From an uncultured Candidatus Saccharibacteria bacterium (GTDB lineage Bacteria; Patescibacteriota; Doudnabacteria; UBA920), in NCBI GenBank assembly GCA_964532425.1, contig CAZHIA010000002.1, positions 77,945 to 141,944 of the forward strand: a stretch of 64,000 bases of DNA, in the 5' to 3' direction. The translations under genes were made by a program, and so were the position numbers. Shown here piece after piece: positions 7,955 through 17,854 of the stretch. Numbering within the stretch: position 1 is the first letter of the stretch; each line of letters opens with the position of its first letter. A model generated the notes under the pieces. That model was not told the origin of the DNA. It was given only the letters and a program-made list of their open reading frames with translations, and searched no databases.

Positions 7955-9124
7955 ATGAATCCGGAATATAAACCTTCGGAAGAAGAAATCAAAAAGGCAG
8001 AAGAAATTTTGCAGGATAATCCTGAGTTGGATCGGCAAACAAATTTGCGAGAGCAATACCATAAACAGGAGCGGGCGCCATTTGATGATTTTCTCGATTT
8101 GGATGACACAAGTGAGCAGCGCCGCGAGCCGACATCGGAAGAGCACGAGCGACTTGATCGCAACCTTGCGCAATTATCTGAACTGTTTGCTGGTTCTGGT
8201 GTTCGCTGGAATCTGGATGGCGCGATAAATATTTCCCTGGTGCGCGGAGAGTACATTGGCATCCATAAGGATGTTGATATCTCTGTGGAAACTGAGGATA
8301 TCGCAAAACTCGATGAAGCTCTCGGCAGGAAAGGGTATGGGTTGTTCCTGTCGTATCCCAAAGACCCGGCGGCAGAACGCTCAATGAACACTATGGAGCG
8401 TGTGGGTGCCGGACGGTTCAGTCACGAACACTCAAACAACTTAATGATTGCAGCCATCGACGAACAAGGGAAAATCCAAGAAAGCGGCGGGCCGCAATTG
8501 AATTTTATCGACGTGCATCTCATTGAACGGGATGAAACAGGGAACGCCCGCGGTTTTGGCGGTGTAGAAATTCCTAATATCTGGGCAGAAAAGATTCGGA
8601 CGGAGTACCAGGGTCATGAATTGTATGTATCACACCCAGCCAAAGTTGCCTACTACAAGCTGCATGGCGTACGGGCGTACGACATGAATGATGTCAGATT
8701 GTTATGCGAAGCTGGTGTCTTGAGTTTAAATGATGCAAAAGATTTGCGGGCTATCATGGAGCGAGAATTTCAGACTCGTAATGCCGGGGTGGCAAAGCTT
8801 TGTGAACAGTTTTCGGGGGAAATGAAACCAGGGATGGACGCAGGCCAGATCGAGCATATTTTTTTGAATAACCCGGCGGTTGCAGCGCGGTTGGAGGCTG
8901 AGCCTAAACGTCGGGCTGACTTTGAACAGCGTTTTCACGAAGCTGCTGTCACGCTGGCGGCGGCAGGCGATTATACATTCGAAACCATCAAGGCTGCCGT
9001 ATTCAAGCATTTCAACATTGAAGGCTCGTTCGATGAAATGGATGGCAAACTACAAAAAATGGAACAGTGGGTGGGAGAGTTCGAGGCTGTTAAGCAAGCT
9101 AGGAAAGAAGTCCAAAATTCGTAA
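7955..9124 (+). CDS. Hypothetical protein with nucleotidyltransferase-like motif
   Basis: 389 aa. 'GIHKDVDISVE' resembles the G-x-[DE]h[DE]h signature of a Pol-beta-type nucleotidyltransferase. The N-terminus is acidic and coiled. Confidence 0.45.
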   Translation: MNPEYKPSEEEIKKAEEILQDNPELDRQTNLREQYHKQERAPFDDFLDLDDTSEQRREPTSEEHERLDRNLAQLSELFAGSGVRWNLDGAINISLVRGEYIGIHKDVDISVETEDIAKLDEALGRKGYGLFLSYPKDPAAERSMNTMERVGAGRFSHEHSNNLMIAAIDEQGKIQESGGPQLNFIDVHLIERDETGNARGFGGVEIPNIWAEKIRTEYQGHELYVSHPAKVAYYKLHGVRAYDMNDVRLLCEAGVLSLNDAKDLRAIMEREFQTRNAGVAKLCEQFSGEMKPGMDAGQIEHIFLNNPAVAARLEAEPKRRADFEQRFHEAAVTLAAAGDYTFETIKAAVFKHFNIEGSFDEMDGKLQKMEQWVGEFEAVKQARKEVQNS

Positions 9125-9126
9125 AC

Positions 9127-9212
9127 GCGCATAACGCGCGGCCGCGCGTTATGCGAGTTGTAAAATTGATAGACAAAAAATGCCTGGTTTCCCAGGCATT
9201 TTAAAATGCATA
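9127..9212 (+). terminator. Tandem hairpins (CGCATAACGCGCGGCCGCGCGTTATGCG; AATGCCTGGTTTCCCAGGCATTTT)
   Basis: Two perfect palindromes after the 7955-9124 CDS. The second is followed by a T-tract. Confidence 0.6.
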
Positions 9213-9233: not shown

Positions 9234-10769
9234 TTGAAGCAAATTCGTCTTCTATTATATTATATGAAATATCTCAAAGATTCGATTTTTAAATACAAAG
9301 GTCTTATTCAGGGGAAAGAATGGTATCATCAACGGTTCGACGGGTGCCCGATGTTTATTTTTGCTATTGCTGATGCTGAGATGGTCAAAGAGAAGCGCAA
9401 ACCGGCTGGTAATTACCCCAATGTTCGCGTATGTTTCTTTGGCGACGGCAAGGCTGACTGGCATTTGGATATGAGAGATGTCCGGTCCGCAACGGCCGCT
9501 CTGATCACTTTGGCAAAAAAAGACAAGAATTTGTCTACCAAGCTGCTGAAAGCTTGGAAAAAAGACGAGCTGGATTTTGATCGTTTCTTCTGGAAAGAGT
9601 TTCCCAAGATCAGTCTGCGCGCTTTGACCGATCGGCAGTTGCTCGCGCTTTGGAAGAGATATTATAAGCTCGCCATTGCCCGTTTGAGTTCGACCGGGAT
9701 TATAGACCATTTCGCCCTTGGGTCGGACGCTTTGATCCAAGATATGGTAAAGGACGAAGTGCGGAAGTTGACCAATAACCGGCCAATGAAAGATTCCGAA
9801 TTTGCGGGTATATTTGCGGTTTCCACGGCGCCAGTTCATCAATCGTTCATAAACCAGGCCGAGATCGATTTACTGAAGATCGCAACCGGACAATCTACAG
9901 AAACTTTGCAGCATTACCAGAAGCGGTATTTTTGGATAAAAAACAACTATGTAACTTCGCAAGTGTTGTCGGTTGAATATTTTCAGAACGAGGTCAAAAC
10001 CTGGAAGCAGAGCGGCAAGGATCTGCGGGTGGAAATTACAAAATTAGAAAATACTCCGAAGGAAAATAAGAAAAAGAAAACCAAGCTGTTCAAACAGTAC
10101 AGGTTTTCGCCGCTCTTGAAAACCTTACTGAAGATCTCTGAGGATTTTACTTTTTGGCAGGACGAGCGCAAGCGGGCAACCTACTTCAATATCTATATCG
10201 GCTGCACGCTACTGGAAGAGATCAGCCGCAGGACCGGCTACATGCTCGATCAGTTGAAATACGTAACCGCCTCGGAAATCGAGGGTGTTATGAAGGATAA
10301 AAAACCTTTACCTCGACAGTTGGATGCGCGTATGGCAGGGTCGGTGTTCCTGGTCAACCGGCGCGGTTATTGCGTGGCAACCGGCAAGGATGTGGAAAAA
10401 GTGCGCACCGTGATGTGGGGCAAGCAGAAACAGGATGAGGTGAATGATTTCCGCGGGCTGACCGCGTCGCTCGGCAAGGTGCAGGGGCGGGTTAGGATTG
10501 TAAAATCGGTCACGGAAATTGGCAAAGTCGAGCAGGGTGATATATTGGTCGCGGTCATGACCAGGCCGGATTACGTACCGGCTATGAAAAAGGCCGCAGC
10601 CATCGTGACCAATGAGGGTGGAATCACCAGTCATGCTGCCATTGTTAGCCGCGAACTAGGCATTCCGTGCGTGATCGGCACCAAGATTGCCACAGAAGTG
10701 CTGCATGACGGCGATATTGTAGAGGTGAATGCAAATCATGGGAAGGTGACAATTATTAAAAGAGTATAA
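9234..10769 (+). CDS. PEP-utilising-enzyme mobile (swivel His) domain protein, paralog 1 (no ATP-grasp domain)
   Basis: 511 aa. The C-terminal ~90 aa ('GDILVAVMTRPDYVPAMKKAAAIVTNEGGITSHAAIVSRELGIPCVIGT...VEVNANHG') is a canonical PEP-utilising mobile domain with a catalytic His. The N-terminal ~400 aa is helical and has no ATP-grasp motif. Confidence 0.75.
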   Translation: MKQIRLLLYYMKYLKDSIFKYKGLIQGKEWYHQRFDGCPMFIFAIADAEMVKEKRKPAGNYPNVRVCFFGDGKADWHLDMRDVRSATAALITLAKKDKNLSTKLLKAWKKDELDFDRFFWKEFPKISLRALTDRQLLALWKRYYKLAIARLSSTGIIDHFALGSDALIQDMVKDEVRKLTNNRPMKDSEFAGIFAVSTAPVHQSFINQAEIDLLKIATGQSTETLQHYQKRYFWIKNNYVTSQVLSVEYFQNEVKTWKQSGKDLRVEITKLENTPKENKKKKTKLFKQYRFSPLLKTLLKISEDFTFWQDERKRATYFNIYIGCTLLEEISRRTGYMLDQLKYVTASEIEGVMKDKKPLPRQLDARMAGSVFLVNRRGYCVATGKDVEKVRTVMWGKQKQDEVNDFRGLTASLGKVQGRVRIVKSVTEIGKVEQGDILVAVMTRPDYVPAMKKAAAIVTNEGGITSHAAIVSRELGIPCVIGTKIATEVLHDGDIVEVNANHGKVTIIKRV

Positions 10770-10779
10770 AGATAAGCAT

Positions 10780-11628
10780 ATGCCCCAACAAAACCTCTGG
10801 GAAGCCATTCAAGCTGCCGCTTCAGAAAAGAGAAGAAGGGTGGCAATCGGCATCAACAAAATAACCCCGAAGGTCGTCGATAGCTTAAATCGTGCCAAAC
10901 GATACGTGGATATTGTGGTAGTGGGAAAGAAGATGGAAGGGTTTGATTCAATAGAGTGTGACAATTTGACCCCCATGATCCAGATGGCCAAGGATGGCAC
11001 AGTGGATGCGGTGGTGCGCGGCAATTTTGACGCACTCGATGCGTATAACGCTCTAAAAGAGGTGTTCAACATCCAATCCGGTATTCTAGAAATAAACTTT
11101 TTCAAGCTTAACGGTATTAAGATGATTGATGATTCCAAGCAGGGAGTGTTTTGCTTGTTACCGGCTAGCTTTGTGAACGAACGGACATACGAGGACAAGA
11201 TAAAATCCATCAATCTCCATTTAGATTTTTTCAAGAAAATCGGCATAGAACCCAAACTGGGAATTTTAGGGCCGGGAAAATTGATAGACAAACAAGAAAA
11301 TATTCCCGAAGTGACCGCCGGACTGGAGGAGGCGGAGAACTTAGTTACACATTATAGCGAACAGGGAGTGTGGGGGAAATTTTTCAACCATCAAATCGAA
11401 TACGCGGCCATGGAAGCTAATATAATCGTAGCCCAGAATTCTTGGGCCGGGAACCTGGCGGCGCACTGCCTGCTATATTTTGGAACATGTGACTACCTGG
11501 GCGGCGCAGCTCTGAATATTCCGGAAATTGTGTACGTTGATGACAGTGAAGCAATGCAGGATTTCGAAAACTGTTTGCTGTTTGCTTCATATTTAGCCGC
11601 GCAAAAATCTCATGAAAAGCCGGAATAA
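10780..11628 (+). CDS. PTA/PTB-family (phosphate acyltransferase-like) protein
   Basis: 282 aa. The motif series ('RVAIGINKITPKVV...', 'DAVVRGNFDALDAYN', 'KLGILGPGKL', 'NIIVAQNSWAGNLAAHCLLYF') lines up block by block with phosphotransacetylase/phosphotransbutyrylase. Confidence 0.5.
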   Translation: MPQQNLWEAIQAAASEKRRRVAIGINKITPKVVDSLNRAKRYVDIVVVGKKMEGFDSIECDNLTPMIQMAKDGTVDAVVRGNFDALDAYNALKEVFNIQSGILEINFFKLNGIKMIDDSKQGVFCLLPASFVNERTYEDKIKSINLHLDFFKKIGIEPKLGILGPGKLIDKQENIPEVTAGLEEAENLVTHYSEQGVWGKFFNHQIEYAAMEANIIVAQNSWAGNLAAHCLLYFGTCDYLGGAALNIPEIVYVDDSEAMQDFENCLLFASYLAAQKSHEKPE

Positions 11629-13114
11629 CCCGCGTCCCACCATATCAGTTTATAAGAGTCCTGCCCCGCCATTTCCGATCGCGCTCATGGCAAGTTGTTA
11701 TACCTTGCCGATGACCAAAAGCGTCGGGGTGCGGGATTATTATTCGACTTTGTTCGATTTCATGGACAACAAGGTTGGCAACTGGCATTTTTACCAGCAC
11801 GACATCGACCGCATTACACCAAAGGTTTTGAATGCCTTACTGAAAGACAACAGGATCGTCAAACACTGCGCCCAGCAGTATGTAAAATACATTTCCCGGG
11901 TCACGGCTTTATTGGACAAAAGAACATTACAGGAACGGCTCAGAAAAATGTCCGTGGGGGAGAGAGTGTCGTGTTTCAAGAAAGCTATGGCTGCCTACCA
12001 GCAAGCTTCGTACTATGTTGAGCCGCCGGATTTTAGTTTGGAGCTCGGCGGGTATGCCATAGTCAAAGAGAGGATTAAGCAGGAGCTTGAAAGCCGGGGG
12101 ATTATCATAGGCCAGGCGGAATTTGAGGCCTACATCGGCACCTTGTTTAATTTCACAGCCTTATCATTCGTCCAAAGGTCGGAGTTGGCTATTTTAAAAG
12201 CCGCACGGCTTTCGCTGCCCAGGAGAAAAGGCGCTATCAAGAAGATAGAATCGGATTTTTATTGGCGGACGTATGATTATTACGGCGAGTTATTTGATAC
12301 GGACAAGATCGAGAAAGAGATTCAAACTTACCAAAGTTTGCCCGCGGCAGAGTTGGCCCGAAGGATTAAAGAAATAGAAAAAAGTCCTGCCAACAACGAA
12401 AAAACGCTCACAGCCAAGTTGCAGGCATACCCTTTGAGCAAGGAGTTGCGAAATATCACTAAGATCATCCGTGAGTTTTCTTTTCTCTATAGCGATATTA
12501 AGAAAGGTCTTACCTCAAAAGCCAATGTGGGTTTCGGTATATTTTTGGCATTTTTATCGGAACAGACCGGAGTTGATGAATATCTTCTTCATTATGCGAC
12601 ACCGGCGGAGCTGATAGCTATCCTGGAGGGTAAGATTTCGGCCGGTTCTTTGAACTTGAAATCCAGGTTATCCGGATGTGTATATGTGAACAAGCCAAAA
12701 ATGAAAGACTATTTTGAGCTGCTTGATAAGTCTGAGAGTAAGCGGATTCTGAGTGTTTTGAATTCACCCAAGGAACAGGACTTTCAGCAACTGAAAGGAT
12801 TAACTGCAAATTTAGGGAAATACATAGGTCCGGCTAAGGTTGTCATCAATGTCAGTCAGATCGGTAAAGTTGCCCCAGGCGATGTGCTGGTAGCACCGAT
12901 GACGGCAGTTGGGTTTGTGCCGGCCATGAAGAAGGTCAAGGCGATTATTACTGATATTGGCGGTATTACTTCACACGCAGCCATCGTCTCCCGGGAATTG
13001 GGTATTCCGTGCATTGTGGGCTTAAAGTCCGCTACCCAATCCATCCATGATGATGATATTGTGGAAGTCGATGCTAATCATGGAATTGTGAATTTGATAT
13101 CAAAAAATCAGTAA
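11612..13114 (+). CDS. PEP-utilising-enzyme mobile (swivel His) domain protein, paralog 2 (no ATP-grasp domain)
   Basis: About 500 aa. The C-terminus 'GDVLVAPMTAVGFVPAMKKVKAIITDIGGITSHAAIVSRELGIPCIVG...VEVDANHG' is the swivel domain. The true start may be an internal Met (11684 or 11714), because the listed start overlaps the preceding gene. Confidence 0.7.
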   Translation: MKSRNNPRPTISVYKSPAPPFPIALMASCYTLPMTKSVGVRDYYSTLFDFMDNKVGNWHFYQHDIDRITPKVLNALLKDNRIVKHCAQQYVKYISRVTALLDKRTLQERLRKMSVGERVSCFKKAMAAYQQASYYVEPPDFSLELGGYAIVKERIKQELESRGIIIGQAEFEAYIGTLFNFTALSFVQRSELAILKAARLSLPRRKGAIKKIESDFYWRTYDYYGELFDTDKIEKEIQTYQSLPAAELARRIKEIEKSPANNEKTLTAKLQAYPLSKELRNITKIIREFSFLYSDIKKGLTSKANVGFGIFLAFLSEQTGVDEYLLHYATPAELIAILEGKISAGSLNLKSRLSGCVYVNKPKMKDYFELLDKSESKRILSVLNSPKEQDFQQLKGLTANLGKYIGPAKVVINVSQIGKVAPGDVLVAPMTAVGFVPAMKKVKAIITDIGGITSHAAIVSRELGIPCIVGLKSATQSIHDDDIVEVDANHGIVNLISKNQ

Positions 13115-13126
13115 GATTTCGGATTT

Positions 13127-15115
13127 ATGTACACTAAACTGTTTACTCAAATTTCTAAAACAGATGTTGCCGAAGCCGGTGGCAAGGGGGCATCTTTGGG
13201 CGAGATGACCCAGGCGGGTATTCCCGTACCGCCGGGGTTCGTGGTACTGGCTTCGGCTTTTGAAATGTTTGTTGAAGAAACGGAAATCAAGACGGATATC
13301 GAAGCGGTATTGGAGGAGGTGAATCACAAAGACACCAACAGCGTTGAACAGGCTTCGGAAAAGATCCAAGGCATTATTTTAAGCGAAGAGATGCCCGGGG
13401 AGATAGGGGAGGAGATTTCAAAAGAGTTTAAAAAACTGAAATCGAAATATGTAGCTGTCAGATCATCCGCTACATCCGAAGACAGTAGTAGTGCGGCCTG
13501 GGCCGGACAGCTGGATACGTATTTGAACACGGCGGAAAAGGAGTTGCTTTTAAACGTTAAAAAATGCTGGGCCTCTTTGTTTACGCCGCGAGCTATTTTT
13601 TATCGGTTCGAAAAGGGTTTGCATAAGGAATTCATATCCGTGGCAGTCGTGGTTCAAAAAATGGTGCAGAGCGAAGTCTCGGGCATCGCCTTTTCCGTGC
13701 ATCCCGTGACCGAGGACTACAACCAGATGATCATCGAAGCCGGCTACGGCCTCGGGGAGGCGATTGTCTCAGGTTCGATTACCCCGGATTCCTATGTGGT
13801 CAAAAAGAAGGAAATGGAGATTGTTGATATTACGGTGGCCGACCAGCAGCAAATGCTGGTAAAAGCCAAACAGGGCAACGAGTGGGTTACTGTGCCTGGC
13901 TCAAAGCAATCCAAGCAAAAACTTTCCAAAGCCGAGATTATGAAGTTATCAAAATTGATCATTAGAATCGAGAATCACTACGGTTTCCCCTGTGACATTG
14001 AATGGGCGCGTGAGGGTGGTAAATTCTACATCACCCAAAGCCGGCCGATTACAACCCTGGCTCGTAGTGGGGAAAAAACAATCTCGAGTACAACACCGAT
14101 CGTGTTCCAAAAATCCTACTCCCGAGACACTACATTGTTTATGCAAGGGTTATGGGCAAGAGGATTAACACAATTAAGTAAAGAGAAATTTGGATGGGAC
14201 AATCCTTATTTGCCATTTATTGCCCATTTTATGAATGATGGAGTGGTGGAGATTTGGGAGCATAAAAAAGCTATTGAATGGTTTTTGAATACCCTGCTGG
14301 ATGAAAACAGAAACGGGATGGAGTTTTTGGAGAAGGTGTTTAAGGAATATGTAGATTTGCTGGGACAGTTAAAGAAACTTCATCAGAAGAAGTTCTTGGA
14401 TACGCGGAAAGATATCGAAAGATATACCGAGCTCGTATACCAGGCTTCATTGGATATGACTTTATTCTTTTATGTGGGGGTCGATAAGAGGAGTCCTTCC
14501 AAAGCCAAAAAGTTGTCAATCCAGGCAAGAAAACTCGGTGATTTTTTCGCGGAAAATGACGTATTTGTAAGGAATAATATTTCCCGCCGGGGCAAAATTT
14601 CCAAAGAGCTTGCTGGAGTAGTGCTGTCAGCCGAGTTTATCAAAATTCCTGCAAAAGCAAATTTGGAGAAGCGCCTTTCCCGATATCTTATGATTGATGG
14701 AAGTGTGACGTATTCGGGCAGTCTGGATACTCTCATGAAAGAGCATGGAGAATATGTATTTGAAAAGAATGGTGCCTTGACCGGCAAGGTGGGGGAAGTT
14801 GCTGGACAGCCGGCTTATAAAGGTGTGGCGCGGGGTTTGGTACGTATTGTCAGAAAGCAAAGCCATTTGGAGAAGGTGAAAAAAGGAGATATTTTGGTTG
14901 CACCCATGACCACCCCGGATTTCTTACCGGCAATGGATCGCGCTGCTGCGTTCGTGACAGACGAAGGTGGTGTAACCTGCCACGCCGCTATTGTATCCAG
15001 GGAGATGGAAAAACCGTGTGTAATCGGGACGAAGTACGCCACGGAAGTTTTGAGAGACGGTGATTTGGTTGAAGTTGATGCGAATAAAGGAGTGGTGAGG
15101 ATTTTGAAAAAGTGA
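13127..15115 (+). CDS. PEP synthase / rifampin-phosphotransferase-like enzyme: N-terminal PEP/pyruvate-binding ATP-grasp domain + C-terminal swivel His domain
   Basis: 662 aa. The N-terminus 'AGGKGASLGEMTQAGIPVPPGFVV' matches the PPDK/PEPS nucleotide-binding domain. The C-terminus 'GDILVAPMTTPDFLPAMDRAAAFVTDEGGVTCHAAIVSREM...VEVDANKG' is the swivel domain. Confidence 0.8.
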   Translation: MYTKLFTQISKTDVAEAGGKGASLGEMTQAGIPVPPGFVVLASAFEMFVEETEIKTDIEAVLEEVNHKDTNSVEQASEKIQGIILSEEMPGEIGEEISKEFKKLKSKYVAVRSSATSEDSSSAAWAGQLDTYLNTAEKELLLNVKKCWASLFTPRAIFYRFEKGLHKEFISVAVVVQKMVQSEVSGIAFSVHPVTEDYNQMIIEAGYGLGEAIVSGSITPDSYVVKKKEMEIVDITVADQQQMLVKAKQGNEWVTVPGSKQSKQKLSKAEIMKLSKLIIRIENHYGFPCDIEWAREGGKFYITQSRPITTLARSGEKTISSTTPIVFQKSYSRDTTLFMQGLWARGLTQLSKEKFGWDNPYLPFIAHFMNDGVVEIWEHKKAIEWFLNTLLDENRNGMEFLEKVFKEYVDLLGQLKKLHQKKFLDTRKDIERYTELVYQASLDMTLFFYVGVDKRSPSKAKKLSIQARKLGDFFAENDVFVRNNISRRGKISKELAGVVLSAEFIKIPAKANLEKRLSRYLMIDGSVTYSGSLDTLMKEHGEYVFEKNGALTGKVGEVAGQPAYKGVARGLVRIVRKQSHLEKVKKGDILVAPMTTPDFLPAMDRAAAFVTDEGGVTCHAAIVSREMEKPCVIGTKYATEVLRDGDLVEVDANKGVVRILKK

Positions 15116-15262
15116 GGCACTTGTTTAAATCACGATCGTGAGTTAAGCAAGAGGGCATGGTGATAAGTCGAGTTGTAATAATTGCTTAGGGAGGGGATGG
15201 TCGCGACCATCCCCTACAACGGGCACCAGCTGTGGTTGGTGTCTTTAAAAGTCGGTGAGGTT

Positions 15263-15330
15263 TTAAGCCAGAGAAAATTTTCTTTGGCTTTTTTATAAGA
15301 GCGTAGTCCCGCTTGGGTAAGCGGTTTTTT
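15263..15330 (+). terminator. Two tandem Rho-independent terminators (AGCCAGAGAAAATTTTCTTTGGCTTTTTT; CCGCTTGGGTAAGCGGTTTTTT)
   Basis: Hairpins followed by T-runs after the 13127-15115 CDS. Confidence 0.6.
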
Positions 15331-15554
15331 GAATAAGGGTCTTGACAGTTGGTGTACGTTCGTATACCATAGATTTGTACAGTGCCATTATTCCCGAGGA
15401 GGACGGATAGTAGTCTTAAAAACCGCAGTCTGCGGCGGTCGGGAAGACCTTTTGCCCTGAGCCCCCAGCTCATGCCCTTTTAGAGGGTATGGGTCTGCCC
15501 AGGGCATAAGGTTCTCCCGACTGCAAGCAGTGCGGGCAGTATAAGGAGGCCAGT

Positions 15555-15830
15555 ATGGCCAAAAAGAAAGAAGGCTGGTTTAAGCCCTTCATCCTCAATC
15601 CGCACAACGTCAATCGGGTTGTGCAGCCGGACAAGCCCGGAGTTTATGTGCTTGGTTTTATGGATAAGGACCGTAAATTAAAGATTAAGCACATGCGGGC
15701 GACCGGTAATGTCAAAGACGAGCTGATGAAACAGATCGGCAAGTATCATATTTTTATGTACAAGCCGCTCAAGTACCAGCTCGATGCTTTTCGTGCGCGG
15801 CATCAGCAGTCGTTGCAGTTCGGTTTTTAG
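15555..15830 (+). CDS. Small protein with GIY-YIG-like N-terminal motif (possible nuclease fold)
   Basis: 91 aa with a strong RBS ('taaggaggccagtATG'). 'KPGVYVLGF...IGKY' resembles the GIY...YIG signature. Weak. Confidence 0.4.
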   Translation: MAKKKEGWFKPFILNPHNVNRVVQPDKPGVYVLGFMDKDRKLKIKHMRATGNVKDELMKQIGKYHIFMYKPLKYQLDAFRARHQQSLQFGF

Positions 15831-15838
15831 TAGAATTT

Positions 15839-15951
15839 ACACGTTTTGCCCGATACAGAACACCAGGGCAAAACCCACAAGGGGCTTACCCGATTACTTC
15901 GTTATTTTGTTCCGCTTGACCTCACCGTACCATCCAGTACGGCTCGGCCAA
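15839..15951 (+). repeat. Structured ~112-bp element, copy A
   Basis: Imperfect direct repeat of 16139-16250. It contains the hairpins GTTTTGCCC...GGGCAAAAC and CCGTAC...GTACGG. Confidence 0.6.
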
Positions 15952-16138
15952 TGCTCGCAAAATGCCTCGTACTCGGCTAAGCGCGTAAATTCTACCCCCG
16001 TCCGATAAATCACCGACAGAGATTAGCGGGACATCCCTTGCAAGGGTCGGCAATCAACGCGGTCAATACGCAATCTTGCCATAAGGCGCTTGTAAGGAGA
16101 ACTTACCAAGATCGAAAGCGGGATTTATTTCCGGACTT

Positions 16139-16250
16139 ACACGTTTCGCCCAACACAAAAATCAGGGCGAAACCTGCAAGAGGCTTGTCCGATTACTTCG
16201 TTAAAATGCTCCGGTTGACCTCACCGTACCTCCAGTACGGCTCGGCCAAT
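16139..16250 (+). repeat. Structured ~112-bp element, copy B
   Basis: About 80% identical to copy A. Relative to A, the first hairpin shows compensatory changes (GTTTCGCCC...GGGCGAAAC). It is followed by the palindrome CCTGCCTGCCGGCAGGCAGG and a terminator at 16318-16349. Confidence 0.6.
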
Positions 16251-16381
16251 CCCTGCCTGCCGGCAGGCAGGCTCACATTTTGTCTCGTTCTCGGACAAGC
16301 GCATAAGTCCTCACTGAGCCCCGCCCTTTTAAAAGAAGGGTGGGGTTTTCTATTTGAGATGCTAAAGAGTATACTATTGGT

Positions 16382-16681
16382 ATGATTGAATGGCTTGTTC
16401 ATAAAGGATTGTTCAGGAATGCCAACCATGCTATTTGGTTTTTGTGCACAATAGGCATATTCTTGACCTTTGTTGTCTTACATTTTTATCCGCACTCTAC
16501 TGTTGCTTGGCTCATCGTTCCGGTGATTGTTCACATGCCGCCGCTTGTAACCGCCACGGTCTATCGAATTCGGAAGACGGACAGTGAGATTTATTCAGTT
16601 GATTGTATATGGTTTAATGCCGGTATGGTTACCCTGTATTTTATTGTCGGAATATTGCAATTATCCCGAAATGCTGGATAG
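16382..16681 (+). CDS. Hypothetical small membrane protein (3 predicted TM helices)
   Basis: 99 aa, strongly hydrophobic. Confidence 0.45.
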   Translation: MIEWLVHKGLFRNANHAIWFLCTIGIFLTFVVLHFYPHSTVAWLIVPVIVHMPPLVTATVYRIRKTDSEIYSVDCIWFNAGMVTLYFIVGILQLSRNAG

Positions 16682-16840
16682 CTGTTATATTATTGTAGTT
16701 CCCTACAAGACACGGTATGCAAGCCTTCGTTAAAATCCCGTCCAGGAACCAATCCCGGATGGGATTTTGTTATGTTTGGCTTATCCACACGTGATTTTGA
16801 CAATAGGTGAACGATTGTATACTATATAGATAACAATAAT

Positions 16841-17854
16841 TTGGTATATATGGACGAAATAAAAAAGGGTGAAATTGTTATTTATAAAGGTACGGAAGGT
16901 CTTGAATTGCAGGTGCGGATGGAGGGGGAGACGGTCTGGCTTACCCTGCAACAAATAGCCGATTTTTTTAAACGTGACAAATCTGTTATTTCTAGACATA
17001 TCAAAAATATCTTTAAATCATCTGAATTAAGCCAAAAATCAGTTGTTGCAAAAATTGCAACAACTGCAAAAGATGGAAAAACTTACCAGGTAGAGTACTA
17101 TAATTTGGACATGGTTATTTCGGTTGGTTACCGGGTTAATTCAACGCGGGCCACCCAGTTCCGCGTATGGGCTACACAGACACTGCGAAATTATTTGCTG
17201 AAAGGCTATGTGGTCAACGAGCAGCGGCTCAAGCAGCTCGAAACCGAACATGTTCATTTGAAGGAATTGGAGCAGGCTAACCAGCTGTTTGTACAGGTGA
17301 TCGAATCCCAGCGCGCTGAAGGGTATGAGAAGGAACTGCTCAAGATTATCATCGACTACACCAATACCTGGTTCGTGCTCAACCAGTATGACAAAGGCGA
17401 GCTGGCAGTGGCGGATGTTAGTAAAAAGAAAGCTGCGGCGCTGGATTACGAACAGGTTATGAAATCGATAGAAAAATTCAAGCAGCGGCTCGGGGCCCGA
17501 AAAGAAGCGGGAGACCTGTTCGGCCAGGAAGTGGGGGAGAAGCTCAAGGCCGTGCTCGGAAGTATCAACCAAACCTATGGCGGCAAGGACCTGTATCCGT
17601 CGCTGGAAGAAAAAGCGGCCCACCTCTTATATTTCTGTATAAAAGACCATCCATTCGCGGATGGTAATAAACGCATTGGCAGTCTGTTGTTTTTGCTCTT
17701 CTTAATCGAAAATCATGCGCTTACCAACCGTCGCGGAGAACGAAAGATCAATGACAGTGCCTTGGCGGCCTTGGCTTTGTTAATAGCTGAGAGTCAGCCT
17801 GAGCAGAAAGAGGTCATGGTAAAGTTGGTAGTGAACTTGATAAATAAACGATAG
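16841..17854 (+). CDS. RhuM-family N-terminal domain fused to Fic/Doc-type domain (HPFADGNKR motif)
   Basis: 337 aa. The N-terminus 'IVIYKGTEGLELQVRMEGETVWLTLQQIADFFKRDKSVISRHIKNIF' has the RhuM-family signature. The C-terminus 'HPFADGNKRIGSLLF' has the Fic/Doc catalytic motif. Confidence 0.75.
   Translation: MVYMDEIKKGEIVIYKGTEGLELQVRMEGETVWLTLQQIADFFKRDKSVISRHIKNIFKSSELSQKSVVAKIATTAKDGKTYQVEYYNLDMVISVGYRVNSTRATQFRVWATQTLRNYLLKGYVVNEQRLKQLETEHVHLKELEQANQLFVQVIESQRAEGYEKELLKIIIDYTNTWFVLNQYDKGELAVADVSKKKAAALDYEQVMKSIEKFKQRLGARKEAGDLFGQEVGEKLKAVLGSINQTYGGKDLYPSLEEKAAHLLYFCIKDHPFADGNKRIGSLLFLLFLIENHALTNRRGERKINDSALAALALLIAESQPEQKEVMVKLVVNLINKR

Follow-up and report, generated by a model that had tools for sequence, protein, structure and literature searches.

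What are three phospho-histidine swivel domains doing beside a single ATP-grasp domain in the genome of an uncultured bacterium of the Candidate Phyla Radiation (CPR)? The question is raised by four tightly packed plus-strand genes at positions 9234-15115 of a 64,000-nucleotide stretch of contig CAZHIA010000002.1 (assembly GCA_964532425.1, Doudnabacteria), which was analysed as a whole and is called the window here. We refer to the genes, in order, as P1, Mtx-like, P2 and P3. By analogy with characterized enzymes, we consider it probable that they encode a modular small-molecule dikinase of the RPH/PpsAB/HpeHI type, in which one ATP-binding 'charger' would serve three phospho-His 'carriers'. 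The components belong to known families and are not categorically new, and in an exact-cluster look-up all four proteins were singletons.

The gene junctions are narrow. P1 and Mtx-like lie 10 nt apart, Mtx-like and P2 overlap by 17 nt, P2 and P3 lie 12 nt apart, and the four genes therefore form a single operon. A preliminary description of this DNA, made from the sequence alone, had proposed these open reading frames (ORFs), and their coordinates and strand were confirmed. It had also placed tandem terminators at the end of the unit; two terminator-like hairpins do follow P3, but they stand 150-210 nt past its stop codon, not immediately after it. At the other end, a hairpin stands between the operon and an upstream nucleotidyltransferase-like gene. 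The start of P1 is ambiguous (TTG at 9234 or ATG at 9264), and homolog alignments begin near residue 11-25.

A PF00391 swivel domain was found by Pfam search in P1 (aa 433-503, E 9e-27), P2 (aa 421-491, E 2e-25) and P3 (aa 585-655, E 4e-28). Its catalytic His lies in the motif GGITSHAAIVSRE in P1 (His467) and P2 (His455) and in GGVTCHAAIVSRE in P3 (His619), and GG[IV]T[SC]HAAIVSRE occurs in all three. The GGxT[S/C]HAA motif has been defined with its His near the C-terminus (PMC12167813), and here that residue stands within about 50 residues of the end in each protein (467/511, 455/500 and 619/662). The ATP-grasp domain PF01326 is confined to P3 (aa 16-320, E 2.6e-99) and absent from P1 and P2; P3 also contains AGGKGASLGEM...GIPVPPGFVV and is the sole ATP-grasp protein of the 64 kb window. 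The three swivel-ending genes, the motifs quoted for them and the restriction of the ATP-grasp domain to the third gene were all as first described, whereas to call the swivel domains near-identical was an overstatement: they are 47-61% identical, against 20-30% for the domains ahead of them. P1 and P2 align as true paralogs along some 350 aa (32% identity, E 2e-54), with a diverged N-domain (20%) and a conserved swivel domain (61%), whereas P3 has the swivel domain alone in common with them. PF02896 (PEP-utilizers_C) had no match at E<=0.1 in P1, P2 or P3.

No Pfam or NCBIfam model covers the N-terminal domains of P1 and P2, and their nature was approached through structure prediction. An AlphaFold (AF2) model of P1 built from 59 homologs was confident (pLDDT 93.2, pTM 0.91), with an N-domain that is mostly helical with a small beta-sheet, in keeping with the helical N-domains described earlier. 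When this model was compared with the PDB by Foldseek, the best six matches were all RPH (E 4e-13, TMq up to 0.56), and beyond the swivel domain it matched RPH only. On this ground P1, and P2 by paralogy, are predicted to be 'RIF-binding-like domain + swivel' components of PpsAB/HpeHI-type dikinases, that is, substrate-binding domains joined to a swivel. The family is large: a search with the P1 N-domain returned 310 proteins of about 500 aa, all ending in PF00391, and an exhaustive profile search matched 2,492 clusters at the 50%-identity level, 1,178 of them at E<=1e-10. Full-length P1 orthologs (31-72% identity) come from dozens of lineages of both CPR and DPANN and share about 70 invariant N-domain positions. 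In a rough neighbour-joining tree their archaeal and bacterial members are interleaved, which suggests inter-domain gene transfer.

That P1 and P2 might instead be decayed fragments or pseudogenes of a phosphoenolpyruvate (PEP) synthase, PEPS, is an explanation to which we give practically no weight. They do carry only the central domain of PEPS, and they score about 100-140 bits against PEPS NCBIfam models, below cut-off. However, the ORFs are intact and retain the catalytic His, the confidently predicted fold is that of RPH and not PEPS, full-length orthologs are spread over dozens of CPR and DPANN lineages, and about 2,500 clusters match the N-domain. The fragment or pseudogene explanation was rejected on these conservation data; P1 and P2 are not pieces of a single PEPS gene, the finding that would have refuted the preliminary description.

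Several P1 relatives carry additional domains or have other neighbours. Six Paceibacteria-type orthologs (L093:9719-11467, L066, L067, L073, L074 and L083; L numbers denote loci of the surveys described below) have a conserved N-terminal XRE-family helix-turn-helix (HTH) domain of about 90 aa (PF01381, E 2e-18), and a paralog in L010 (6953-8599) has a MerR-type HTH; judged by their domains, such proteins would bind DNA and also possess a ligand domain and a phospho-His swivel. A swivel paralog in L061 (8013-9944) bears an N-terminal cytidylyltransferase-like/FAD-synthetase-like domain (PF01467, E 3e-16), a fusion that hints at activation of its substrate by a kinase step followed by nucleotidylyl transfer. 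In Kerfeldbacteria (L022, identical to L002; 6258-9482), a solitary P1 ortholog stands 4 nt behind genes for a CBS-domain protein and an anion transporter of the ArsB/CitMHS/Na-sulfate-symporter type, a context that may hint at an anionic, imported substrate.

The domain order of P3, namely ATP-grasp, substrate-binding domain and C-terminal swivel His, is that of RPH. The earlier label 'RPH-like' holds for fold and domain order, but 'short PEP synthase' fails, the C-terminal PEP/pyruvate-binding domain being absent. The best NCBIfam and PDB matches of P3 aa 1-320 are the ATP-grasp domains of PEPS/PPDK; the scores of the protein stay below the cut-offs of the PEPS models (462 bits against 598 for NF005057, 446 against 740 for TIGR01418) and of the RPH model NF041857 (337 against 999). 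Standalone ATP-grasp proteins from CPR genomes (about 311-330 aa) match its ATP-grasp domain at 54-68% identity. The short middle domain (about 235 aa) is homologous to the substrate domain of short array members, such as L8_10951 (33% over 337 aa), and also to the C-terminal half of longer N-domains. Unfused pairs of an ATP-grasp gene and a short swivel gene occur in L052, L075 and L029, and their swivel genes are not the closest relatives of P3. A recent one-off fusion was rejected as the origin of P3, because end-to-end single-chain homologs exist.

The distribution of these genes across genomes was surveyed from P1. Species-representative genomes scanned with the P1 N-domain alone yielded 80 loci in many CPR lineages and in DPANN (Woesearchaeota, Nanoarchaeota), and the census comprised 85 non-redundant P1-centred loci (+-10 kb). 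It rests on our own greedy ORF calling and on hidden Markov models from P1-family alignments, not on curated annotation, and the taxon labels of the bins are automatic and in some cases implausible. The 85 loci hold 352 swivel-only genes against 39 ATP-grasp ORFs (32 standalone, four system-type fusions and three canonical PEPS/PPDK), and more than one ATP-grasp gene was found in none of them. The three canonical enzymes (L023, L069 and L071), with a central swivel and in two cases on the opposite strand, were rejected as members of the system and are still counted within the 39. Swivel-only genes number 4 per +-10 kb at the median and 11 at most, and in L003 at least 12 swivel genes stand in succession. 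Nearly all labelled genes are co-oriented (405/410). Of 346 full-length swivel-only domains, 336 retain the catalytic His, and most of the divergence lies in the substrate domain. An ATP-grasp gene stands next to a P1 ortholog 2.4 times more often than expected by chance.

Three syntenic loci retain the gene order of the window. In L013 a P1 ortholog (67%) is followed by Mtx (51%), a swivel gene, an unknown gene and a standalone ATP-grasp gene (G320), and in L010 Mtx (63%) is followed by four swivel genes, one of them a P2 ortholog (39% identity over 490 aa), and a standalone ATP-grasp gene (G313). These standalone proteins (313-320 aa) are 63-67% identical to P3 aa 1-318, and P3 occupies their operon slot. 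In L014, the nearest relative and likewise from Doudnabacteria, P1 and Mtx are followed by a protein of 1044 aa that combines one PF01326 domain with two of PF00391. A standalone ATP-grasp protein has no His domain and no other way than to act in trans. We propose that P3 charges P1 and P2 in trans because it fills the slot of such a subunit, because it holds the sole ATP-grasp domain in 64 kb, and because the nearest relative fuses an ATP-grasp domain to two carriers. The earlier suggestion of a modular His-phosphotransfer, with one ATP-grasp domain for several swivels, thereby gains comparative backing from the standalone subunit in the P3 slot, from arrays with at most one ATP-grasp gene and from the fusions.

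A second view was taken from the ATP-grasp side. When metagenomes were scanned with an ATP-grasp alignment, more than 582 relatives came up, and the best 80 matches included 42 loci of at least 9 kb, 23 of which have swivel-only neighbours and 18 fused forms. Single ORFs with one PF01326 and two or three PF00391 domains occur in L129 (1752 aa), L130 (1447 aa), L105, L148, L104 and L014, and these fusions are the strongest sequence-level evidence for one ATP-grasp domain serving several swivel modules. Giant ORFs of 1,300-2,650 aa, made of tandem substrate-domain and swivel modules, were also seen (L059:7385-12412; L058:1653-5531; L129:10001-15259; P0172, P0173, P0197 and P0200); some have an N- or C-terminal ATP-grasp domain, and whole arrays are in effect one polypeptide.

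From homology with PpsAB, HpeHI and RPH (PMC12167813), we infer the following mechanism. The P3 ATP-grasp domain would bind ATP, and the conserved His of a C-terminal swivel would attack the beta-phosphate, with the gamma-phosphate leaving as Pi and AMP being released. The swivel would then take the phosphate to the helical substrate domain of the same polypeptide and pass it to the bound small molecule. P3 would perform this reaction in cis with its own short substrate domain, while P1 and P2, charged in trans by the P3 ATP-grasp domain, would each phosphorylate their own, different substrate. Observation covers the domains, folds and catalytic motifs of the proteins, the structure of the operon, synteny, gene ratios and fusions; what we infer is that charging occurs in trans, which way the reaction runs and what the Mtx-like protein does.

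The Mtx-like gene had been described as a PTA/PTB-like gene. No Pfam family, PF01515 included, matched its 282 aa product at E<=0.1, and none of 15 homologs has a precomputed Pfam domain. The lack of a PF01515 match is formally an outcome that the preliminary description had named as refuting it; at the level of the superfamily, however, the homology holds by way of MtxX. The protein scores 67.4 bits (E 1.1e-18) against TIGR03270 (MtxX/Mmp4), under the 190-bit cut-off, and in PDB sequence searches its sole relative is MtxX, 9nzy (phmmer E 1.7e-10; profile E 3.8e-18). Its structural model (pLDDT 89.5) matched MtxX best in Foldseek (E 3e-16, TMt 0.78-0.81) and PTB/PTA next (E 1e-12 to 1e-9, TM 0.6-0.7). 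An hhalign comparison of a 27-sequence Mtx-like profile with a PF01515-positive PTA profile gave 96.9% probability (E 1.3e-10, 259 columns). By sequence and predicted fold, the protein is a remote PTA-superfamily member of the MtxX branch. It would act on the product, or the substrate, of the P1 branch, and the most economical guess is that it would displace phosphate, in the fashion of PTA, from a phospho-activated intermediate such as an acyl phosphate.

Partner genes of this kind recur in the census. Mtx-like genes occur in 14 P1-centred loci, all CPR-type (bacterial-labelled records or unlabelled metagenome contigs), and lie directly 3' of the P1 ortholog in the window, L012, L013 and L014. 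Canonical PTA (PF01515, E 6.5e-84) is found inside the arrays of 12 loci, all archaeal-labelled (the DPANN loci L041, L043, L045, L048, L053, L055-L059, L062 and L080), usually 0-2 genes from the P1 ortholog; L057 reads P1-PTA-G and L062 P1-PTA-swivel-G. The archaeal-labelled arrays thus hold a bacterial-type PTA, and CPR bacteria have a homolog of the archaeal methanogen marker MtxX instead. Genes of two HAD and two His_Phos_1 families, for a hexapeptide-repeat acyltransferase and for an M29-like protein also recur nearby. The presence of a PTA-fold partner points to a phospho-activated product, at least for P1, from which phosphate is displaced. In the simplest case, which is speculative, an acyl phosphate would become a thioester, and the DPANN hexapeptide acyltransferases would fit the use of acyl-CoA. 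For other paralogs, the phosphatases and the fused nucleotidyltransferase point to phosphoesters as products.

Two more array-embedded families of about 290-360 aa (L010:17712-18686 and L003:10927-11892; L013:6704-7576 and L003:13987-15072) had no Pfam match, and one of them comes after the standalone ATP-grasp gene in L010. Beside the P1-like/Mtx-like pair of L012 (2244-6932) stand a reverse transcriptase (RVT_1), an HTH protein and an OLD-like TOPRIM/AAA_15 ATPase, a cluster that looks like a retron- or defence-type island.

A PTA-fold partner also brings up the reverse direction, in which the PTA/Mtx protein would form an acyl phosphate from acyl-CoA, the phosphate would move to the swivel His and ATP would be made from AMP (with Pi or PPi). 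We regard this energy-conserving scheme as very improbable. PPDK is ATP-forming in some anaerobes, an H+-PPase gene adjoins the L013 locus, and the PTA-fold partner has no local AckA, the PROSITE-type signature of which was found in no P1-centred locus. However, the ATP-grasp domain is of the PEPS/RPH (water-dikinase) type and not of the PPDK type, the conversion of acyl phosphate, AMP and Pi to ATP is uphill by about +20 kJ/mol (our own estimate from textbook hydrolysis energies), and up to 11 paralogs with different substrate domains would be senseless for a single fermentation step. Since a water dikinase would, on this estimate, favour the consumption of ATP, the shunt for energy conservation proposed earlier is unlikely.

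Several observations weigh against the charger-carrier reading. In 46 of the 85 P1-centred loci there is no ATP-grasp gene within 10 kb, and our ATP-grasp search covers 64 kb of a 310 kb contig, on which another copy is possible elsewhere. Among the 42 loci from the best ATP-grasp matches, P1 orthologs are present in only 3 and Mtx or PTA in none, and the P1/Mtx branch is therefore a minority use of the charger family. End-to-end P3 homologs (44-49% identity, 661-690 aa) are solitary in L107, L113, L151 and L155, with no swivel-only neighbour within 10 kb; because they exist, the compact single-chain form is a recurrent and probably autonomous enzyme, and P3 itself may be self-contained and its placement beside P1 and P2 incidental. 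On the side of the partner, MtxX is without known activity (PMC12978539), and the invariant 'DDS' of the Mtx-like family aligns to 'GRS' of the PTA profile in hhalign, an alignment that is no rigorous mapping of catalytic residues, so that PTA-type catalysis is not assured.

Of these points, the solitary P3 homologs and the P1 loci without a nearby ATP-grasp gene feed the rival explanation that the operon merely co-locates independent enzymes. P3 would then be a cis-only RPH-like kinase, and P1 and P2 would take their phosphate from an ATP-grasp protein encoded beyond the window or from a different donor (acetyl phosphate or some phosphorylated metabolite, for example). HpeH alone can shift phosphate between a phospho-substrate and a substrate (PMC12167813), and the PTA-fold partner could provide an acyl phosphate as donor. 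We nevertheless judge this explanation unlikely, though deserving of serious attention. P2 and P3 are only 12 nt apart in one terminator-bounded operon, P3 sits at the exact position of the standalone ATP-grasp gene of L013 and L010, the L014 fusion to two swivel modules comes right behind P1-Mtx, and adjacency of ATP-grasp and P1 orthologs exceeds chance.

The likeness to RPH invites a different function for the same parts, namely a cluster of antibiotic- or xenobiotic-inactivating kinases that neutralise secondary metabolites of hosts or competitors. RPH is the sole structural match of the P1 substrate domain, the substrate domains of paralogs are hypervariable, the gene upstream weakly resembles aminoglycoside and lincosamide nucleotidyltransferases, and CPR and DPANN organisms live attached to hosts. 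However, the P1 group is strongly conserved in bacteria and archaea alike, a pattern more in line with a universal metabolite than with a variable toxin, the RPH score of P3 is a third of the NCBIfam cut-off, and the recurrent partners are metabolic (PTA, HAD and His_Phos_1 phosphatases, hexapeptide acyltransferase, cytidylyltransferase fusion). The upstream gene stands behind a terminator and is not conserved with the operon. We consider inactivation improbable. A signalling role, in which swivel phosphorylation would report a ligand and control transcription or partner enzymes, as in PTS-linked regulators, appears more improbable still. The XRE and MerR HTH domains on P1 relatives and the TrmB-like regulators in 14 loci would fit it, as would the PTA fold, which also serves as a regulatory acetyl-CoA sensor in MaeB (among the Foldseek matches); but P1, P2 and P3 of the window, like most family members, have no DNA-binding domain by Pfam, and the arrays are accompanied by phosphatases and transferases of a metabolic type.

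Extended from the operon to the whole family, the charger-carrier reading leads to a wider idea that we put forward tentatively and with some doubt. CPR and DPANN may possess a combinatorial platform in which one ATP-grasp protein charges a whole set of exchangeable swivel-His subunits, each with its own substrate and as many as a dozen in one array. It would be an ATP-driven analogue of the phosphotransferase system (PTS) and would trap and activate scavenged metabolites in organisms without most of the dedicated pathways, the P1 product being passed to a PTA-fold enzyme.

Table 1. Positions in the window of the operon genes, their domains and catalytic codons, and the operon boundaries.
Feature	Position	Strand	Residues	Remark
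Palindromic terminator-like hairpin	9177-9202	.		A and T runs on flanks; 5' boundary of operon
P1	9234-10769	+	511 aa	predicted swivel-only dikinase component (ORF call, Pfam, AF2 model)
P1 N-domain	9234-10439	+	aa 1-402	RPH-like, predicted substrate-binding
P1 swivel domain	10440-10769	+	aa 403-511	C-terminal phospho-His domain
P1 catalytic codon	10632-10634	+	His467
Mtx-like	10780-11628	+	282 aa	remote PTA/PTB-superfamily member
P2	11612-13114	+	500 aa	predicted second swivel-only component
P2 catalytic codon	12974-12976	+	His455
P3	13127-15115	+	662 aa	predicted compact single-chain dikinase
P3 ATP-grasp domain	13127-14086	+	aa 1-320
P3 middle domain	14087-14788	+	aa 321-554	short, predicted substrate-binding
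P3 swivel domain	14789-15115	+	aa 555-662
P3 catalytic codon	14981-14983	+	His619
Two terminator-like hairpins	15265-15290 and 15309-15324	+		T tails; 3' boundary of operon

The remaining genes of the window are bacterial housekeeping genes (PolA, PilB-type ATPase, UvrB, ClpB, CCA-adding-type enzyme, RpoB and RpoC), and named homologs come from Candidatus Doudna-, Kerfeld- and Uhrbacteria, which identifies the DNA as part of a CPR/Patescibacteria chromosome. PADLOC defence models gave zero matches for the five proteins tested, and the operon is therefore no defence system of a known type; neither an Rfam family nor a tRNA was found in the window. The upstream gene (7955-9124, +) encodes a 389 aa protein with weak likeness to aminoglycoside-2''-adenylyltransferase and lincosamide nucleotidyltransferases (PF10706, E 3e-5; NF000153, E 0.027); it is cut off from the operon by the terminator and shows no sign of co-conservation in other loci. 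A perfect GC-rich palindrome (CGCATAACGCGCGGCCGCGCGTTATGCG, 9127-9152) lies right behind its stop codon, before the 5' hairpin of the operon. Downstream, a promoter-like site (15342-15370) and the start of a 91 aa ORF (15555-15830, with AAGGAGG ahead of its ATG) enclose 187 nt (15372-15558, +) that fold into one long hairpin with a minimum free energy of -88 kcal/mol (z = -5.6 against shuffles). It matched no Rfam family and could be a structured leader, a small RNA or a long palindrome. Beyond the gene-poor stretch 15116-16800 follows a protein with RhuM-family and Fic/DOC domains (16841-17854, +), and past about 18 kb the GC content of the window climbs from about 45% to 50-55%.

CPR and DPANN account for a large share of microbial diversity, and their reduced genomes leave open how metabolites are captured from hosts and activated. 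Widespread, expanded and unannotated ATP-dependent dikinase modules are a concrete candidate for this task. The array genes are now labelled 'PEP-utilizing enzyme', 'PEP synthase' or, in DPANN, 'phenylphosphate synthase', and our analysis corrects a routine error of metabolic reconstructions of CPR and DPANN genomes, in which they are annotated as gluconeogenic PEP synthase. If the charger-carrier reading is true, the two-component dikinase paradigm would widen from 1:1 pairs to one charger with many carriers, and the natural multi-module fusions would be usable for structural work. The conserved pairing with a PTA-fold protein ties a phospho-His kinase to the MtxX family, the function of which is unknown despite a 2026 crystal structure, and, if the wider idea of a platform holds, would provide the first functional context for this orphan methanogen marker (MtxX, Mmp4).

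In the searched literature on swivel, PEP-utilizing or dikinase proteins of CPR and DPANN, we found no description of the arrays, and no paper that reports a one-to-many arrangement, the expansion throughout CPR and DPANN of a substrate domain that no model covers, fusions with several carriers or the conserved PTA-fold/MtxX-like partner. The only related reports concern Ack/Pta in Pace- and Woesearchaeota and the 'phenylphosphate synthase' annotation in DPANN metagenome-assembled genomes, where such members were read as phenol degradation genes without the downstream carboxylase (PMC8091004). The Mtx-like protein resembles MtxX (9nzy) most in both sequence and structure and has its fold in common with PTA/PTB, but its hosts are CPR bacteria and not methanogens, and its swivel-kinase gene context is unlike any reported for mtxX (PMC12978539).

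Comparison with single-chain enzymes sets the window proteins apart. PEPS and PPDK share an ATP-grasp and a swivel His domain with P3, but have a central swivel and a C-terminal PEP/pyruvate-binding domain, whereas in P1-P3 the swivel is C-terminal and PF02896 is absent. RPH (PDB 5fbu/5hv1) shows 13-15% identity, with NCBIfam RPH scores far under cut-off; its substrate domain measures about 430 aa against about 235 aa in P3, and it has the ATP-grasp domain that P1 and P2 lack. The prodiginine ligases PigC, RedH and HapC belong to the same three-domain family and use ATP-driven phospho-activation of a substrate oxygen before substitution (PMC13534948); they differ as single chains of about 880 aa from secondary-metabolite clusters, with scores far under cut-off (about 300 bits against 1300). 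The PTS follows the same logic, in which Enzyme I as one swivel-His donor serves many substrate-trapping acceptors, the Enzymes II. The likeness is an analogy only, although the swivel is homologous: the PTS draws on PEP and not ATP and proceeds through HPr, EIIA/B and membrane transporters, none of which is present here.

The closest counterparts are the two-component dikinases PpsAB (Thauera), HpeHI (Rhodococcus) and CreHI (Corynebacterium), and the arrangement, which the preliminary description did not recognise as a described one, is in its split design of this already known kind. In these systems PpsB and HpeI are ATP-grasp-only, while PpsA, HpeH and CreH carry the His (PMC12167813), in a subunit with an RPH-like substrate domain and a C-terminal swivel. 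L013 and L010 show exactly this split, whereas in the window the ATP-grasp domain is fused to a carrier, P3, and is not a separate subunit. The N-domain has no sequence similarity to members of these systems, NCBIfam models of the PRK08296 type matching the swivel part alone. PpsAB, HpeHI and CreHI act on phenolics in free-living aromatic degraders, whereas the hosts here are CPR and DPANN, and a PTA-fold partner is present. Finally, the known systems pair one ATP-grasp domain with one swivel, whereas the window has three swivel domains per ATP-grasp domain and its relatives have up to 11 or more.

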